From IMG/VR virus record IMGVR_UViG_3300044609_000960, positions 95,263 through 159,262 of that record: a stretch of DNA of 64,000 nt, one strand, 5' to 3'. Of this stretch, positions 5,435 to 63,355 are shown in pieces. A program made the translations under genes and the position numbers. This DNA is from a virus. Every line of letters starts with the position of its first letter. Within the stretch, counting starts at the first letter, position 1. The notes below the pieces were generated by a model that saw nothing but the letters and a program-made list of their open reading frames with translations, made no database searches and was not told the origin of the DNA.

Positions 5435-6163
5435 TCAAGTCGGGGAATATAGATCAGAGTACGCGCGGATGACAGACTTGACGAAGTCAGAACGAACAAT
5501 CTCATTATAGCCAAAGTTAACATGGCCAACAGATTGATTAGAACCAAGTCTGCGGAGGGCGTCTGAAAGTCCATCATGGCCGTAGCGGTTAGCAAGGTCA
5601 CGTTGAACTACGTCACCAAGCAAAGCGATAGACGAATTATCACCAAGTCGGGTAAGGATTGTCATTACGGAATGGGTAGTGGCATTTTGCATCTCGTCCG
5701 CAATGATCATGCAACGATGTAGAGACCGTCCACGAAGGTGCTCAATAGGTAAAAACTCAATAATCTTTTTCTCAATAAGATAGTCGGCTTTACCTTTTTG
5801 CATAAATACCGCCAAGGAGTCGCGAATCGGCATGATATGAGGCGCGATCTTCTCTTCAAGATTACCTGGAAGGAAGCCGAGACCTTGCTCACCTGGAGTG
5901 GATACAATGGGTTTTACGTAATAAATCTTCTCGATCTCACGTTTTTGAAGTTTTTCGCATGCAGCATGGATTGAAAGTAGTGTCTTTGCTGTGCCTGGTG
6001 GTCCGGTGAGGATGGTGAGAGTTTTTGTCTTAAGGTATCTCATTGCATCAACCTGCGAAGGATTCATAGGCAATAAAGGCTTATGATCTTCAAATTTAGG
6101 ATTAGAGGCCTGGATCATTTCACCTTCGGTGATTCTTTGACGTCGAGAGGATTTTCTTGCCAT
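5435..6163 (-). CDS. phoH: PhoH-family ATPase
   Basis: GPPGTAKT Walker A, LGFLPG, LRGRS, DEMQN, LTRLG, GDVVQRD, VRS motifs; start chosen at MARKSS (track start 6220). Confidence 0.95.
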   Translation of the reverse strand: MARKSSRRQRITEGEMIQASNPKFEDHKPLLPMNPSQVDAMRYLKTKTLTILTGPPGTAKTLLSIHAACEKLQKREIEKIYYVKPIVSTPGEQGLGFLPGNLEEKIAPHIMPIRDSLAVFMQKGKADYLIEKKIIEFLPIEHLRGRSLHRCMIIADEMQNATTHSVMTILTRLGDNSSIALLGDVVQRDLANRYGHDGLSDALRRLGSNQSVGHVNFGYNEIVRSDFVKSVIRAYSDLYSPT

Positions 6164-6288
6164 GAGGAGATTGTAAATCTTCTGATACGAAAAAAGACCC
6201 AAGGAGATAAATATCTCCATTGAGTCTCATGATCTGTATGTCTTAGGGGACATAGAATGTCTTCGTATCCTGACAATCTTTAAACTTA

Positions 6289-6636
6289 TCAGACAACTCT
6301 TACTTTAAGAACGCTACCAGTTCTATAAAGTCCGCCAATAGGAACCGGTATAGTTGCTGCTGCGGCCGCTGTGTCATCTGCAAATTCTCTTAGACCTGTA
6401 AAATTAATACGGTTAAAGGCGACAGGAATGGTTGATCTATCACCGAATCTTCTTACTACCCCCGTGCTATCTGCATAATAAACTTCATCAAGTACCTCGT
6501 TGAGGAACAACTCTCCTCTGTAGAGGCTTGAGGAGTCATTGTCATGTTCATCTTGAAGATACGCCTCATCATGAGTAGCATCTGAAGTAAATCTAACTCC
6601 CCAACGATGATAAGGAGGTTGTGGCGTTGCAGGCAT
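6289..6636 (-). CDS. Small hypothetical virion protein
   Basis: 115 aa; LYRGELFLN and C-terminal VPIGGLYRTGSVLKVR seen in small tail-associated proteins; GTTTAAAG motif upstream. Confidence 0.5.
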   Translation of the reverse strand: MPATPQPPYHRWGVRFTSDATHDEAYLQDEHDNDSSSLYRGELFLNEVLDEVYYADSTGVVRRFGDRSTIPVAFNRINFTGLREFADDTAAAAATIPVPIGGLYRTGSVLKVRVV

Positions 6637-6747
6637 ATTCCTACTCGGGTTTCTAGTTATATTAACCTTTAAACTCCAGAGTTTTTTGCTCTAGTCAAAA
6701 GTAACAGTAACTTTTTAACTGTTACTGTCAACGCACGTATATTTCTA

Positions 6748-6756
6748 TGATAGAAT
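6748..6756 (+). promoter_or_regulatory. Representative of TGATAGAAT extended -10 element (six exact copies seen)
   Basis: Also at 30632, 32970, 34706, 36668, 40651. Confidence 0.8.
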
Positions 6757-6780
6757 ACTAAGGAATATATCGAGAAACCA

Positions 6781-7350
6781 ATGCCCTCTTATCCTAAAAC
6801 AATCGTGGTCCTTGGAGCAGATCGAGTCGGAAAATCCACTACTGTAGAAAACACATATAAAGATCTTGTAGAAAAGGATATCTGTGTCCGTTCTCTCCAT
6901 TTCTCTGGTCCTCAGCCACACCATCATAGCCCCATTCAACAATACCTTGATCCCTTCCAAGCAGCATTGGAAGAAAAAGCCCAGGTTGTTCTCTGTGATC
7001 GTGGATTTTCCGAAGTTTGTTTTTATGAGAAATTCCGACGTCACATCGATATCTCTGAAGAATGGGCCAATAGCGCAGAATCATTCTTCGCCTCTTATAG
7101 CTCACTGATCAAAGTATTTTTGATTGAAAGGGACTGGGAATGGAGCCTCCCATTGCACATCATCGAGATCAATGAGTTATATCCTGGTTGCTCTGATTAC
7201 TTTATGAATATGCAACTTCAAGCCCGAGAAAAAGAGCATGAGGAATACTATGAATATATGAAAGACTATCTCACATACCGTTCTCTTCTTTCTGACATCA
7301 CTATTCTCTCCCCGCCTGACAAGTCTTTCTCTTTGGCCGACGTAGTTTAA
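6781..7350 (+). CDS. Deoxynucleoside monophosphate kinase (thymidylate-kinase-like)
   Basis: N-terminal P-loop GADRVGKST and hhhDR motif (VLCDR). Confidence 0.75.
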   Translation: MPSYPKTIVVLGADRVGKSTTVENTYKDLVEKDICVRSLHFSGPQPHHHSPIQQYLDPFQAALEEKAQVVLCDRGFSEVCFYEKFRRHIDISEEWANSAESFFASYSSLIKVFLIERDWEWSLPLHIIEINELYPGCSDYFMNMQLQAREKEHEEYYEYMKDYLTYRSLLSDITILSPPDKSFSLADVV

Positions 7351-36651: not shown

Positions 36652-36676
36652 CAGAGATAACCTATTATGATAGAAT
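36648..36676 (+). promoter_or_regulatory. Sigma70-type promoter
   Basis: TTGACA-N17-TAGAAT with TG extension. Confidence 0.85.
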
Positions 36677-36699
36677 CTAAAAGCCAATTTATTAACGAC

Positions 36700-37155
36700 A
36701 TGATGTTCGATTACGCAAAATTTATCGACCAAGGATATGCCTCTCAGCAGAAATATGCCAAGGCAGCCGGACAACCTGGACCTCTTGACCCAGATCTCAC
36801 CAGAGAAGATCGTCATGCAAAAGTAATCGAGTACATGGGTCATCTTATTGAAGAGACTATTGAAGCCCGAGTTTATGTCCCTCGTCGCAGTTGGAAAAAT
36901 AATGAACCTTCATTCCTAGACAATGATAAAAACCGAGAGGAATTTATCGCAGAGATGTTTGACATTCTTCTCTTCCACCGCGCTGCTCTTGCATACGCCG
37001 GTGTGACAGGATCTGAATTTGCAGAGATTGCGGAAAAGAAAATGAATTACAATTCAAAACGCAAGGACCATAACGTCAATGGTACTGAATCCGCATCTCA
37101 AGACCCCGCACAAGAACTCCAAGGAAACTGCTCATCTGCCAACTTTAATGGCTAA
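36700..37155 (+). CDS. All-alpha dNTP pyrophosphatase (dimeric dUTPase / T4 gp56 dCTPase / MazG superfamily)
   Basis: EETIE, PRRSWK, EMFD, KMNYNSKR motifs; track ATG at 36667 lies inside the promoter so 36700 is preferred. Confidence 0.75.
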   Translation: MMFDYAKFIDQGYASQQKYAKAAGQPGPLDPDLTREDRHAKVIEYMGHLIEETIEARVYVPRRSWKNNEPSFLDNDKNREEFIAEMFDILLFHRAALAYAGVTGSEFAEIAEKKMNYNSKRKDHNVNGTESASQDPAQELQGNCSSANFNG

Positions 37156-38221: not shown

Positions 38222-38788
38222 ATGGACTTCTATTTTTCTTTTGGCAAAAAGAGAGCTTCAGAAAGAGAAACAATCTTTTCTGCAGCTATTATCTGGGGGT
38301 TCATAGAGGCAATAATGGACCCACTCTTGGACTTCTTAAATAAGAAGATCATAGCAAGATTTGATGGGGAAAAGTTAAAGGTAGTATTTGATGAGTTGGA
38401 TATATTTTGGCTAAGAAATGGTAATAGTAAACATTATTCCGACTCTGACATAAGATTAATAATTTCTTTATTTTTAAGATCAGTAGAAGATAATAATTTA
38501 ACCAGAAAGGAACTTCTTGCTTTAGTAGATTTTATTCAGAGAAAGTGGATTGCCTCTGAGGCATTACAAAAAACCTTTACCCAAACAGACGAGGTAATTG
38601 ATGCTTATGTAGAGGCCACAGTAGATCAGGCAATCGAACTCTATGAGAAGACCTATATGGAAAAGCCACTAACCCCAGAGGAGTTTGTGGCTAATACTGC
38701 AGAAATAATCTTCCATGAGCCAGATGGGAGCAAAGCCCAAGAACTCTTAGGAGGAATGATGGAGATTAAAAATAAATTTTTCTATTAA
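38222..38788 (+). CDS. Hypothetical protein
   Basis: 188 aa helical ORF. Confidence 0.6.
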   Translation: MDFYFSFGKKRASERETIFSAAIIWGFIEAIMDPLLDFLNKKIIARFDGEKLKVVFDELDIFWLRNGNSKHYSDSDIRLIISLFLRSVEDNNLTRKELLALVDFIQRKWIASEALQKTFTQTDEVIDAYVEATVDQAIELYEKTYMEKPLTPEEFVANTAEIIFHEPDGSKAQELLGGMMEIKNKFFY

Positions 38789-39999
38789 ATCGACCAAAGA
38801 GGCTTCATTGGCTTTTTAGAATCGGTATTATTCTGCCTAAGAATTTTTGTCGATCCATCATCCTTTCTCTCAGGCTCAATCCATTCTCTCTTACCATCGA
38901 GCACAGCTGCGATCTCAGTAATCCAGTCCCCTGCAGTACATGCAGGGACATTTTGGCAAATTACATTACTATCTTTGGTGGGAATATGGACCTTCTCAGC
39001 GTAGTCATTAGGAAAGCCCATAAGCGCTAGACCTTCTGCCACAGTCAACCAACGGTCCTCGTGGGGATGCATAAGATAAGGCAATGACTTCCACATGAGA
39101 GATTGGGTTCTATACCAGGCCAGCTTCATGCTCCCATCCATGATATTTTTACCTGCTTTTTTCTTCTCAAGAGTGTAGTTGAGCCAACGATTAGCCTTCT
39201 CATCTTTAACAACTCTACAAGCCTCTTCTAACCAACCTGAGTCATGAATAACATTCCATACTGAAGTCATACGTTCAGATGCTACATGAGCAAGTATGTC
39301 TTGCTTAGTCGAACCTACAAACTTTGATTCAATAAACTGCCAGAGTGGATCTTCACTGGGAAGTTTTTTAGACTTACTAACAGAGTCGCTAGGAGCAAAT
39401 CTCCCGTCCTTAAGAAACTTATGGAATGGGTCAAATGATTTTTTGATAGGTGCCATAACAGGTACCTTATCTCCTTTCCATAGGAAGAAGAATGAACGAG
39501 TACGCTCTTGAGGCACTCCATGATTAATCGAGGTGGTTTTCACCAAACTCATAGTATACCCATGTTCATTCGCCAAGGCATTAATCCTTTCTGCAAACTC
39601 CTCACCCATCTTTGAATAAAGAGTAGGGGCATTCTCCACCATAATTGCCTTTGGCTTAATGTTCTTCATTGAAAACTCAGCAGCATTGTACATATGAATG
39701 TTACTAGGAGCTGAGCAACCACGAGGATTATTTGCTTTATCCCCTGAGGTGGTATTTGCCATCGAAAGTCCTGCGCATGGAGGCAAAGACGTAACAATAT
39801 CTACGTACCCTTTAGGAAATGCATTCTCTTCAAAGTCATAAAAAGGCACCTTGTCCATATACTTGAGGCAATATTGATCATTAGCCCCAAACACACTGCC
39901 CCAAGATGCAATCCATTCAGGCTCTGATCCTAGAGCAATCGATGTTCCAACAACACTGCCACCTACTAGGGGGATAATGTGTCCGTGAGTGTACGCCAT
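38785..39999 (-). CDS. Divergent DNA cytosine-C5 methyltransferase-fold protein
   Basis: PPC (IV), ENA (VI), PQERTR (VIII), RWLT..E...LMGFP (IX), QNVP (X); motif I reads IPLVGG instead of FxGxG. Confidence 0.85.
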   Translation of the reverse strand: MAYTHGHIIPLVGGSVVGTSIALGSEPEWIASWGSVFGANDQYCLKYMDKVPFYDFEENAFPKGYVDIVTSLPPCAGLSMANTTSGDKANNPRGCSAPSNIHMYNAAEFSMKNIKPKAIMVENAPTLYSKMGEEFAERINALANEHGYTMSLVKTTSINHGVPQERTRSFFFLWKGDKVPVMAPIKKSFDPFHKFLKDGRFAPSDSVSKSKKLPSEDPLWQFIESKFVGSTKQDILAHVASERMTSVWNVIHDSGWLEEACRVVKDEKANRWLNYTLEKKKAGKNIMDGSMKLAWYRTQSLMWKSLPYLMHPHEDRWLTVAEGLALMGFPNDYAEKVHIPTKDSNVICQNVPACTAGDWITEIAAVLDGKREWIEPERKDDGSTKILRQNNTDSKKPMKPLWSI

Positions 40000-40077
40000 A
40001 AAGTATTTGTGATATTATCTAAGGGATCCTTAGACTGAAAATCTTCGGTTTAAAGACTAGGGAGGATAGAATTAGAA

Positions 40078-40635: not shown

Positions 40636-40688
40636 TAAAGAGGTTTCCTATGATAGAATGATGATCAAATCATTCACCTCGGGAGACC

Positions 40689-41525
40689 ATGACTCTATCC
40701 TTTGATTATCAGTACATCAAGATCGCAAAAGAGATCCTTTCTGAAGGAACTGAGATCGTCGGCCGGAATAATCTGCGATACAAGCAGATGTTCGGCCAGA
40801 CTATCAAAGTTGATATTCGGGAAGGATTTCCTGCATTGACCATTCGTAAAATGCCCGTTCGTAATCTCTTCAGAGAGTTTATGTGGGATATCAATGGGGA
40901 TTATAAAGTTTCAGCACTTGGTCCCGCAAAACATTTCTGGGATTTTCTGGCCGATACTGAAGGCCGTCTTGCTGGGTCTTATGGACGTTCTTGGCGCTCT
41001 TGGCCACAAGTCTGCCCAGAACAAGATATGCAATGGGAAAACTTCCGTGCCAAACCATTCGATCAGCTCAAGTGGATCTGGGAACAACTCCGCATTAACC
41101 CCACCAATCGACAACTTGTTCTTCAGACTTTTAATCCTGCTTACGATTCTCTTCACTGCCCTCCTTGTCATCCTAACGTCGTGTTTTCTAGCGATGGGGC
41201 TCATCTGGATATCTTGGTAACAGCTCGGAGTAATGACATGGCCACCGGGGTCCCCTTGGATATGTTCCGTTATAGCATTCTTTGCACAAAGATGGCTCAA
41301 GATGCAAATCTTATTCCTAGGTTTGTGATGTTTACTTCTGCCAATAATCACATCTATCTGCAGAATGAGATGGCCATTGAATCTATTATCAAGAACGTCC
41401 CAATGGAACCTTGTGACCTCTGGATTAATAATGAAAAACCCTTGTTCGATCTTGATCCAGAAATTGATTTTGAATTGATTGATTATCAGTCTCATCCTGC
41501 TGTCCGTATGGAGGTGGCAAACTGA
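40689..41525 (+). CDS. Thymidylate synthase homologue, predicted dCMP (hydroxy)methylase
   Basis: GFPALT, FRE..W, YG..W, PPCH, RSND, HIY; Asp191 at the position equivalent to E. coli Asn177. Confidence 0.85.
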   Translation: MTLSFDYQYIKIAKEILSEGTEIVGRNNLRYKQMFGQTIKVDIREGFPALTIRKMPVRNLFREFMWDINGDYKVSALGPAKHFWDFLADTEGRLAGSYGRSWRSWPQVCPEQDMQWENFRAKPFDQLKWIWEQLRINPTNRQLVLQTFNPAYDSLHCPPCHPNVVFSSDGAHLDILVTARSNDMATGVPLDMFRYSILCTKMAQDANLIPRFVMFTSANNHIYLQNEMAIESIIKNVPMEPCDLWINNEKPLFDLDPEIDFELIDYQSHPAVRMEVAN

Positions 41526-46072: not shown

Positions 46073-47887
46073 ATGCCGGGCCGTGACGAACTATTACAAC
46101 AGAATAGATCCGCGGTTAAGGCTAGGATAGAATCAGCCGGGGAGGAGGCGTCGACTGGAGGCCAAAAGCCTGTCTACTCCTCCCATCGCAGTCTTTTAGG
46201 GGGTAATTTAGATGTTGCCTCGGCATTGGAGAGTATTGAATTTGCAATCAAGGGTCCTCTCGGTGATGGTGCATTACGTAACTCAGTAGCTTATATACGG
46301 TATTGGAATAGACCTGGGAGCAAATCAACTGCGGAGAACTCTGCCCAGATCATAGATGCTACTCAAATCGATCCGGCATTAGATCCTCAGTTACAAACCG
46401 CAGAACAATTAGCCAATGCGTGGTATGATGGCGGTGAACTTCCAGATAATACTACTATAGAATATAGTACCTCCTTACCAGGTGAGGCTGATGCAACTGA
46501 TTGGTATACAGTAAATACTGGAGTAGAAAGAGATGAGGATGGAAATATAATCCGTGGAATAAGCCAGACAGTCTTTGCTTCGCCTAATACCGATCGACAA
46601 AAGGCTCTTTCTCAAGAAATACCTACAACTAGAACTTATTCTGGAGATCCTAGGGCAATTATAGTTGCAGATACCGAGCAGATCGGTGGAGGAGGCAGAG
46701 GATCTAGGGTTGCTGATCAGCAGATCGGACAAGTTAAACCTGCAAATCCTAACGGATTTGTAAATACCGTCTCAAGAACAGGAAGAAGTGTATTAGGCCT
46801 TCCACCTGGACAGATAGGATATACAGGTCAAGCTGGAGGAGCCCAAGGAGGCAAAGCTGCTCTTGCTTCAGGTGGTACATTAACCAAGGGCATGTGGCAG
46901 TTCCTCTTCAATCCCTCTGAGTTGGAGATTGAGGCCGGACCTGAATTCCGAACGGCAGAAACCTGGGGGGTTAGTGATAAAGCAAACTCCGGCCAACCAC
47001 TCAACTGGAGCCATAATAAAAATACTCAACTCAAGTTTAATTCTGTGCTTCTCAATGGATATGTATTTGGACGCAAGGTAGAAGAACTGGAGCAGGGTAT
47101 CTTTGAGCTCTTTATGGCTAGAGATGGAGAGGGTCAGGCTGGACCTCCTATCCTTGAGTTTGTATGGGGAAAGAGAGTGTTTGGCCCATGTGTGATTAAG
47201 GATATCTCCATTAAAGAAAAGATGTGGGATGAGGGGATGGTTGTTAATGCAGAACTATCCTTTACCCTTGAGCAGATTCCTGAATGGACGATTAATGACG
47301 GATATGTGGATGTGGCTAGACCCGGCCGGATTCCTATGGTCTATGATGCCACTGAATCCGGTCCTGTTGGCGTAGGAAGCACAGTGCCTCCAGGCGCGTC
47401 TCCAGATGCTAAGTCTCCAGATCAAAAATCTCAAAAACCCCAACCCCAGTCTCAAGGAGTATTAAGTGAAAGAGTCTGTGAAAGGGCCTATTATTATACT
47501 GGGTTATTCACCCAATTTAGAACAAGAATGAAGAATATAGGAGGATTTTTAAACCTTGGCAGTTATTCTGAGTATGGAAGAATCATGACAGAGTTCCAAA
47601 TAAAATATCAAGATGCTATTCAAGAATTAGGTAGCGATTTTGATAATCCTTCTCAGGCGAAAATATTATATCAAACAATACAAAATATAGTAGATCCTAA
47701 CAGAGGTTTAATTGCTACGGATATTGAAAATAGACTTACGCCCATTATACAAAAAGCAATTAATAAAGCTGGTGCTATATATAATAGCCCAACTAAATGT
47801 CCCTCTACAAGAGGTTCTACGGTACAACCGGAAAGAAATGGAACCCGTGGTGTAAATACTAGATTATCCACTCCCCTCAATTTATAA
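46073..47887 (+). CDS. CIS-tube/tail tube initiator-like protein
   Basis: FLFNPSEL, PPILEFVWG, CVIKDISI, AELSFTLEQ motifs. Confidence 0.7.
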   Translation: MPGRDELLQQNRSAVKARIESAGEEASTGGQKPVYSSHRSLLGGNLDVASALESIEFAIKGPLGDGALRNSVAYIRYWNRPGSKSTAENSAQIIDATQIDPALDPQLQTAEQLANAWYDGGELPDNTTIEYSTSLPGEADATDWYTVNTGVERDEDGNIIRGISQTVFASPNTDRQKALSQEIPTTRTYSGDPRAIIVADTEQIGGGGRGSRVADQQIGQVKPANPNGFVNTVSRTGRSVLGLPPGQIGYTGQAGGAQGGKAALASGGTLTKGMWQFLFNPSELEIEAGPEFRTAETWGVSDKANSGQPLNWSHNKNTQLKFNSVLLNGYVFGRKVEELEQGIFELFMARDGEGQAGPPILEFVWGKRVFGPCVIKDISIKEKMWDEGMVVNAELSFTLEQIPEWTINDGYVDVARPGRIPMVYDATESGPVGVGSTVPPGASPDAKSPDQKSQKPQPQSQGVLSERVCERAYYYTGLFTQFRTRMKNIGGFLNLGSYSEYGRIMTEFQIKYQDAIQELGSDFDNPSQAKILYQTIQNIVDPNRGLIATDIENRLTPIIQKAINKAGAIYNSPTKCPSTRGSTVQPERNGTRGVNTRLSTPLNL

Positions 47888-62596: not shown

Positions 62597-63355
62597 ATGC
62601 CAGAACTGGTTAAACTCGTCCATGTTACTCCCGAGGCCGAGCATCTCATCACCGACATGGCGCGTGTGTCGGCTCCCAAGAACCAAGGGAATTATGATAC
62701 TGCCTCGCGTCTAATCAAATACCTAATTAAACATCGTCATTGGAGTCCATTTGAAATGGCATCAATGGCCGTAGAGATTAACACTACTCGCGATATCGCA
62801 GCGCAAATCATCCGTCATCGTTCCTTCAGTTTCCAAGAGTTCTCCCAGCGATACGCTGATGTGAAGGACCTTGGACAGATTTGTGTCCCTGAGTTCCGTC
62901 GTCAAGATACCAAAAACCGTCAGAACTCTATCAATGACCTTGATCCTGAGTTGGTCAAAGCATTCGAGCAACGTACCCGTATGCTCTTTGCAGAATCCCA
63001 AGAACTCTACGACGACATGCTCGAGGCAGGGATTGCTAAAGAATGCGCTCGTAAAGTCCTGCCGATGAACTCCCCGAGTAGGATTTATATGCATGGTACT
63101 CTACGTTCTTGGATGCATTATATTGAGCTTCGTTGTTCTAATGGAACACAGAAAGAGCATATGGATATCGCTAACGATATCGCCGATATTTTCGCTGAAC
63201 AATTCCCATCTATCTATCAAGCTTTAGAGGAAATCAAGGGTGAACCGGAACCTCAACCCAAACCTTATGTGATCCCAGAACCTAAAAAAGCCCCCAAGCG
63301 GACTTGGAGGCAAAGGATCAAGGATTATCTTTTGGATCGAATTTTTGATCTATAA
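62597..63355 (+). CDS. thyX: Flavin-dependent thymidylate synthase
   Basis: HWSPFE, RHRSFSFQEFSQRY (RHRx7S), KECAR.VLP, TQKEH; track ATG 62567 overlaps the -10 element. Confidence 0.96.
   Translation: MPELVKLVHVTPEAEHLITDMARVSAPKNQGNYDTASRLIKYLIKHRHWSPFEMASMAVEINTTRDIAAQIIRHRSFSFQEFSQRYADVKDLGQICVPEFRRQDTKNRQNSINDLDPELVKAFEQRTRMLFAESQELYDDMLEAGIAKECARKVLPMNSPSRIYMHGTLRSWMHYIELRCSNGTQKEHMDIANDIADIFAEQFPSIYQALEEIKGEPEPQPKPYVIPEPKKAPKRTWRQRIKDYLLDRIFDL

Follow-up and report, generated by a model that had tools for sequence, protein, structure and literature searches.

A ThyA-fold enzyme with a dCMP specificity residue and its predicted role in cytosine modification in an S-TIM5-like virus

The rightmost 64,000 nucleotides (the window) of a virus record that is complete at 159,262 bp and bounded by inverted terminal repeats encode a ThyA-fold enzyme whose substrate is very probably dCMP. 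The enzyme marks a separate subfamily that carries Asp at the ThyA specificity position and is accompanied, in distant phages too, by a dNMP kinase and a pyrophosphatase resembling gp56, and from this company we infer a dCMP-modifying role. It is predicted to be a hydroxymethylase more likely than a methylase: a hydroxymethyl product appears moderately probable, and a methyl product rather unlikely. The fuller reading, that the enzyme makes 5-hydroxymethyl-dCMP which is later glycosylated in the DNA, we regard as evenly balanced. The enzyme most likely modifies cytosine building blocks for a second viral enzyme, to give a protective sugar layer on the viral DNA.

Alignments place Asp191 of the enzyme on Asn177 of E. 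coli ThyA, and Cys160 on Cys146, without gaps. The catalytic cysteine (codon 41166-41168, within PPCH), the R180-S-N-D motif, and the spacing of 31 residues from Cys160 to Asp191 are as the original prediction had read them, and the alignment it proposed against ThyA, T4 gp42 and the Xp12 dCMP methylase likewise sets D191 on N177 (19% identity to gp42, 24% to Xp12). The catalytic set is complete (R26, E63, W84, Y98, C160, H161, R180, D183, H221 and Y223), and the hallmarks of the superfamily are all found: the PF00303 fold, the cysteine, and Glu58, Tyr94, Arg166, Asp169, His207 and Tyr209 in E. coli numbering. An AlphaFold model of the enzyme (pLDDT 91) matches ThyA structures with TM scores of 0.86-0.90. 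Profile comparison with hhalign gave E-values of 3e-37 for ThyA, 1.5e-15 for Xp12 and 8e-7 for gp42, in agreement with the earlier view that the sequence lies nearer ThyA than gp42. The C-terminal ThyA tail is also kept; its last residues, EVAN, align with the PVAI end of E. coli ThyA. The enzyme departs from canonical ThyA at Asn177, replaced by Asp191, and at both water-excluding residues, Trp83 and Leu143, replaced by Leu87 and Cys157. It carries the Asp by which dCMP-utilising thymidylate synthase homologues are recognized (PMC8670742, PMC13326640). The N177D mutation switches specificity (PMC8670742), and five of seven metagenomic Asp177 enzymes were active on dCMP (10.1101/2024.12.05.627091). 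Asp177 as a marker of dCMP enzymes is already published practice; what is new here is the signature of the subfamily, its occurrence together with ThyX, an alpha-glucosyltransferase (AGT) homologue and a broad methyltransferase, and the cyanophage lineage.

The closest annotated relatives are the cyanophages S-TIM5, 54, 61 and 66, whose enzymes are 77-78% identical to ours; the next matches fall to 34%. Their public label is 'ThyA', the automatic annotation that had been anticipated. Our genome shows the polymerase-gamma-like gene, common gene order and orthologues of the S-TIM5-like group (Aurunvirus lineage). Asp occupies position 177 in each of the 87 clade homologues with sequence at this site, in S-TIM5, and in a sister group about 40% identical to the enzyme, so Asp191 reflects neither chance nor a sequencing error. 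The gene is under purifying selection (dN/dS 0.03-0.11). A profile search and tree delineate phage proteins with D62, D177, R180, N205 and mostly C143, which keep H147 and D169 (E. coli numbering); the signature residues of our enzyme are Asp67, Arg194 and, at the D205 position, Asn219. D62, R180 and N205 never occur together in Asn177 enzymes of the same comparison. The subfamily lies outside the starred branch (100/98) of canonical ThyA and Xp12, in a tree where gp42 and Xp12 form long branches. One distant family member (L094:8001-9344) is predicted as a single gene with an HNH/NUMOD4 endonuclease at its N-terminal end. In other genes, psbA is interrupted by insertions in two relatives (L056:7733-11460 and L057:7360-9312), and an HNH open reading frame splits the polymerase gene of a sister phage (L042:17132-20786); these insertions are likely introns.

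Judged by its sequence marks, the subfamily matches none of three published signatures cleanly, and by the marks published for those families the enzyme does not belong with gp42, Xp12 or the 5-hydroxy enzymes. The hydroxymethylase signature consists of Asp or Glu three residues before the catalytic cysteine and Ser or Thr two before Tyr96 (PMC6400193); the enzyme instead has Cys157 and, at the Ser94 place, Gly96. Every tested 5-hydroxy-dCMP synthase has been published with D169N, and since D169 is retained here as Asp183, that signature is absent too. In the Xp12 arrangement, DHFR and deaminase genes stand beside the methylase gene, with DHFR two genes away; our genome has no DHFR, and its deaminase gene lies 87 kb from the enzyme gene. 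H147 (E. coli numbering) is retained in the enzyme and absent from the T4 and Xp12 enzymes. The second cysteine of the C-P-P-C motif, three residues ahead of the catalytic one, is kept across the clade and the sister group and may act as a redox switch or in catalysis.

Several partners at the nucleotide level accompany the enzyme (Table 1). The ThyX gene proved complete, as originally predicted; its product carries a RHRSFSFQEFSQRY motif, and 62597 is its likely start. The genome also encodes a dCMP deaminase, so that dTMP supply is covered by these two enzymes. We found no DHFR in the complete genome, in S-TIM5, or in 33 related, mostly partial, records, which extends the absence first noted in the window. 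In most sister-group loci a homologue of the kinase gene sits immediately, or almost immediately, upstream of the enzyme gene, two further distant phages have both a dNMP kinase and a homologue of the pyrophosphatase within 8 kb of the enzyme homologue, and kinase and pyrophosphatase accompany the enzyme gene in groups at 40-44% identity. The likeness of the pyrophosphatase to gp56 is a weak match (E 0.007); its single-sequence fold reached a pLDDT of 46, and it had no match in the PDB. Together, enzyme, kinase, pyrophosphatase and deaminase would form a T4-type cast for making modified dCTP.

Table 1. Features of the window, in window coordinates; entries prefixed G000 give coordinates in the complete genome.
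Feature	Position	Strand	Remarks
Thymidylate-kinase-like dNMP kinase	6781..7350	+	phrog_761, 1.4e-5
All-alpha NTP pyrophosphatase	36667..37155	+	Start probably 36700 or 36703; weak likeness to T4 gp56
C5 cytosine DNA methyltransferase	38785..39999	-	70% identical to S-TIM5 enzyme
GTCTAAGG, variant of the GTTTAAAG motif preceding virion genes	40028..40035	-	Upstream of methyltransferase; putative late promoter
Extended -10 type element TGATAGAAT	40651..40659	+	Upstream of enzyme gene; putative early/middle promoter
ThyA-fold enzyme, Asp at the N177 position	40689..41525	+	278 aa; PF00303 E 1.6e-53; predicted dCMP C5-modifier
Asp67 at the F62 position	40887..40889	+	Subfamily signature with Arg194, Asn219
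C157-P-P-C160	41157..41168	+	Cys160 catalytic (= C146); Cys157 at the L143 position
Asp183 = E. coli D169	41235..41237	+	Retained; by alignment
Asp191 = E. coli N177	41259..41261	+	dCMP specificity residue; by alignments
Arg194 at the S180 position	41268-41270	+	Subfamily signature with Asp67, Asn219
ThyX, flavin-dependent thymidylate synthase	62597..63355	+	Intact; PF02511 1-191/191, E 1.9e-48
T4-type alpha-glucosyltransferase (AGT) homologue	G000:5933-7225 (outside window)		PDB T4 AGT E 2e-11
UDP-galactopyranose mutase, overlapping AGT	G000:7222-8346 (outside window)		PF03275 E 2e-71
dCMP deaminase	G000:48540-48950		71% to S-TIM5 PDB 4P9C

The complete genome further encodes, 130 kb from the enzyme gene, a homologue of the T4 alpha-glucosyltransferase followed by a UDP-galactopyranose mutase. 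The T4 residues G13-C-G-V16, R46, H116, R204, K209, E306 and E311 are kept in all aligned AGT copies, and the gene has a dN/dS of 0.03. It follows the topoisomerase gene in 24 of 25 related loci and is also found in all four S-TIM isolates; most related records of one survey lack it, being fragments without that genome end. The slot behind AGT varies, holding the mutase here (present in 4 of the 25 loci), an epimerase in L063, and an NTP transferase with a kinase in L073. The AGT-mutase pair of our genome (G000:5933-8346, L007) is a candidate for galactofuranosyl DNA modification. T4 AGT requires a hydroxymethyl acceptor and acts on hmC. A search of the complete genome found no TET/JBP and no PF13640/PF13759 oxygenase; a very divergent one among the small open reading frames is conceivable. 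Because an AGT needs a hydroxyl handle in the DNA and no TET or oxygenase was found to provide it, a hydroxymethyl product is favored. The original prediction had proposed a maker of 5-methyl- or 5-hydroxymethyl-dCMP with a lean towards the methylase. Its dCMP-specific C5 modification is upheld by the invariant Asp, by the kinase and the pyrophosphatase, and by the supply of dTMP through ThyX and the deaminase, but AGT and mutase, both outside the window, together with the lack of DHFR, tip the balance away from methyl and towards hydroxymethyl.

Related genomes show further variation around these genes. In the sister loci L029 and L042 the mutase is clustered with the kinase and the enzyme; an open reading frame beside the L042 mutase looked glycosyltransferase-like by eye, and searches gave it no assignment. 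In L052, the AGT slot is taken by an unrelated 354-aa gene (5824-6888) with the same upstream motif and no match in annotated phages; it is glycosyltransferase-like by its features, and identity with T4 BGT was not demonstrable (E 0.08). L073:1256-4457 holds a divergent AGT (22%), a small HAD-like open reading frame, an NTP transferase and a phosphotransferase, and may be compared to the sugar-nucleotide cassette of arabinosylating phages. PF18723 5-hmdU DNA kinase-like genes occur in the sister records G024, G031 and probably L037, and none was found in our genome. The sister phage G024 (150 kb, 65% GC) combines such a gene with an Asp177 enzyme and ThyX (features at 38285-39202, 46925-47563 and 128979-131650), and has an HhH-GPD glycosylase and a type of deaminase that are also found in Xp12, a 5mC phage. 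With no AGT and no methyltransferase found in it, G024 possibly carries another modified base.

Next to the enzyme gene lies a gene for a C5 cytosine DNA methyltransferase, found in each clade locus that extends over this position (dN/dS 0.04). One sister record has a methyltransferase of the S-TIM5 type (66%; G023:7203-8423), away from its Asp177 gene, and the other sister records are without it. In S-TIM5, all cytosines that follow purines are reportedly methylated, and this purine-C-only pattern is typical of a methyltransferase; we found no secondary literature on it. If bisulfite was the method, methylation confined to post-purine positions would be hard to square with much hmC at other positions in S-TIM5. 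Of the modified-cytosine genome first proposed, a dCMP-specific C5-modifying enzyme is well supported, but replacement of every cytosine is doubtful, since the conserved methyltransferase, with its late-type promoter, needs plain C and the pattern said to hold in S-TIM5 is limited by context. A mosaic of glycosyl-hmC and 5mC would best reconcile a T4-like gene set with context-limited methylation.

Base composition gave mixed signals on the extent of modification. The site TCCGGA, which contains no purine-C step, is missing from our genome (0 versus 19.9 expected), scarce in S-TIM5 (5 versus 18.5), and not rare in the sister group or T4. Palindrome avoidance by class was 0.84 versus 0.86, and the fully modified T4 and Xp12 avoid single sites too; the scarcity of TCCGGA is only a hint of modification. 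GGATCC is halved in our genome, with a like trend in S-TIM5. The ratio of C/T substitution after purine versus pyrimidine was inconsistent (1.4-1.5 in our genome, 0.6-0.8 in S-TIM5 pairs, about 1 elsewhere), and third-position G/A by context ran in the opposite direction in S-TIM5, like T4. At third positions in S-TIM5 (L001-L005), C is kept at 0.42 after purine versus 0.23-0.26 after pyrimidine on both strands; this bias is absent from our genome, and T4 has a similar one.

Promoter motifs divide these genes into two sets. A sigma70-type element precedes the enzyme gene in all 13 clade loci (8 strict, 5 looser; the strict pattern has a background of 1% per 70 nt), and the extended -10 element is common to the enzyme, kinase, pyrophosphatase, nrdA, nrdB, deaminase and polymerase genes. 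The virion-gene motif G(T/G)(T/C)TAA(A/G)G, with a background of 1.3% per 70 nt, precedes the methyltransferase in 12 of 12 clade loci and AGT in 9 of 10, with a one-base variant in the tenth. Methyltransferase and AGT, both preceded by this motif, therefore probably act late, on progeny DNA.

In the pathway we propose, Asp191 would bind dCMP, Cys160 would attack C6, and CH2-THF would donate the one-carbon unit. Water would then resolve the exocyclic methylene to give 5-hydroxymethyl-dCMP, with THF not consumed. The thymidylate-kinase-like enzyme would lead this product towards the triphosphate, pyrophosphatase activity would shift the pool, and some of the C positions would receive hmC from the polymerase-gamma-like enzyme. 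At a late stage of infection, the T4-type glycosyltransferase would place a sugar on hmC, possibly galactofuranose from the adjacent mutase, and the C5 methyltransferase would methylate remaining plain C in its context; dTMP would come from ThyX and the dCMP deaminase. The scheme builds on observed residues, gene content, conservation and promoter motifs; substrate, hydroxymethyl product, timing, partial substitution and sugar identity are its interpretive parts. A specific two-layer version, in which a new class of dCMP hydroxymethylase lacking the acidic water activator of T4 (perhaps using Asp67 and Cys157) leads to hmC with variable sugars at part of the cytosines, galactofuranose here, and a late methyltransferase acts on the remaining purine-C sites, is a tentative possibility.

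Several observations count against a hydroxymethylase: the acidic residue 143 and Ser94 are absent, the ThyA tail and H147 are kept, the methylase Xp12 likewise has a polar non-acidic residue 143 (Asn) and has lost W83, G024 shares its glycosylase and deaminase type with Xp12, and 130 kb separate the AGT gene from the enzyme gene. We favor hydroxymethyl nonetheless: the loss of W83 and L143 points that way, as do the mutase clusters of L029 and L042 and the PF18723 genes of sister genomes, and gene context was given more weight than marks taken from the gp42 lineage. The ThyA-like sequence and fold, the retained tail, the non-acidic residue 143 and the Xp12-like genes of G024 speak for a dCMP methylase whose product, as with Xp12, replaces many or all cytosines in the DNA by 5mC, as does the published finding that the five tested deaminase-linked Asp177 enzymes gave 5-methyl-dCMP. 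This reading is nonetheless unlikely: no related record contains DHFR (although host DHFR could serve a methylase), AGT would be left substrate-less without a TET, methylation in S-TIM5 is said to be context-specific, and the C5 methyltransferase would be redundant, yet its dN/dS is 0.04. A methylase could instead provide a second dTMP route, from dCMP through 5-methyl-dCMP and the deaminase, with the kinase as a thymidylate kinase, the pyrophosphatase as a dUTPase, and all 5mC in DNA owed to the methyltransferase. Such a route has been proposed in print for Xp12, the deaminase is present with the same promoter type, and the purine-C-only pattern would fit; but dTMP already comes from ThyX and deaminase, DHFR would be required, AGT is unexplained and an Asn177 enzyme would serve directly, making this distinctly unlikely.

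Quite improbable, too, is a route in which hydroxymethyl-dCMP is deaminated to hydroxymethyl-dUMP, and hmU, invisible to bisulfite, partly replaces T and is glycosylated by the AGT homologue. To our knowledge, hmU phages use an Asn177 enzyme; in addition, ThyX is kept, T4 AGT acts on hmC, and our genome lacks PF18723. The route is nevertheless compatible with purine-C-only methylation and a conserved AGT, PF18723 genes do occur in sister genomes, and published work shows that deaminases can channel hm-dC nucleotides into hmU in DNA in vivo. An ordinary dUMP thymidylate synthase, redundant with ThyX, would suit the intact catalytic set and the ThyA annotation; we consider it very improbable in view of the invariant Asp177 with its co-varying D62, R180 and N205, the specificity switch caused by N177D (PMC8670742), and the lack of DHFR. 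There is equally little to be expected from other C5 chemistry, such as 5-hydroxy-dCMP of the RB69 and RL38JI type or a methylene trapped by another nucleophile involving Cys157. The new active-site signature and the similar cast of RL38JI (thymidylate-kinase-like kinase, glycosyltransferases and UDP-galactopyranose mutase) recommend it, but D169 is retained, against D169N in every tested 5-hydroxy-dCMP synthase.

If the hydroxymethylase reading is right, a sugar-modified base has been overlooked in S-TIM5-like phages, a cultured, ocean-wide lineage whose DNA has so far been described only as 'methylated'. A single genome would then combine modification of cytosine in the nucleotide pool with its modification in DNA, an acidic residue 143 would no longer hold as the rule for recognizing hydroxymethylases, and counts of these phages based on qPCR or sequencing libraries could be skewed. 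A literature search that covered sources other than the text of the main S-TIM5 paper found no report of sugar-modified DNA in this group, and no paper treating S-TIM5 gp076 as a dCMP enzyme.

That protein, F417_gp076 (annotated as thymidylate synthase / ThyA), is the orthologue of our enzyme, 78% identical, with the same neighbors and active-site residues. S-TIM5 likewise has AGT, methyltransferase, ThyX, deaminase, kinase and pyrophosphatase; our genome adds the UDP-galactopyranose mutase after AGT. With the T4 glucosyl-hmC pathway (gp42, gp1, gp56, alpha-gt, cd, td), it has in common Asp177, an AGT homologue, a dCMP deaminase, a separate dTMP synthase, a kinase and an all-alpha pyrophosphatase; at the level of genes, the dNMP kinase, pyrophosphatase and hmC DNA glycosyltransferase of a T4-type pathway are thus all predicted. 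At 19% identity to gp42, the enzyme differs in lacking the D145/S94 signature, having Cys157 where gp42 has its water-activating Asp, and keeping the ThyA tail, while this non-T4 phage has ThyX instead of td and frd, a thymidylate-kinase-like kinase and an extra C5 methyltransferase. The Xp12 dCMP methylase shares the ThyA-like fold, Asp177, a non-acidic residue 143 and a genomic dCMP deaminase; in contrast, it is 24% identical, falls in a different clade (its place on a long branch being unsure), has adjacent deaminase and DHFR genes and no AGT seen, and lacks H147, D62 and R180. The 5-hydroxy-dCMP synthases of RB69, DLP3 and RL38JI (PMC13326640) share Asp177, a thymidylate-kinase-like kinase, a glycosyltransferase and, in RL38JI, a mutase, but their D169N signature is absent from our enzyme. 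Finally, the phage C5-MT/TET/GT pathway (PMC8256090) likewise combines a broad-specificity C5 methyltransferase and a glycosyltransferase in one genome; here, where no TET was found, a pool-level enzyme stands in its place.
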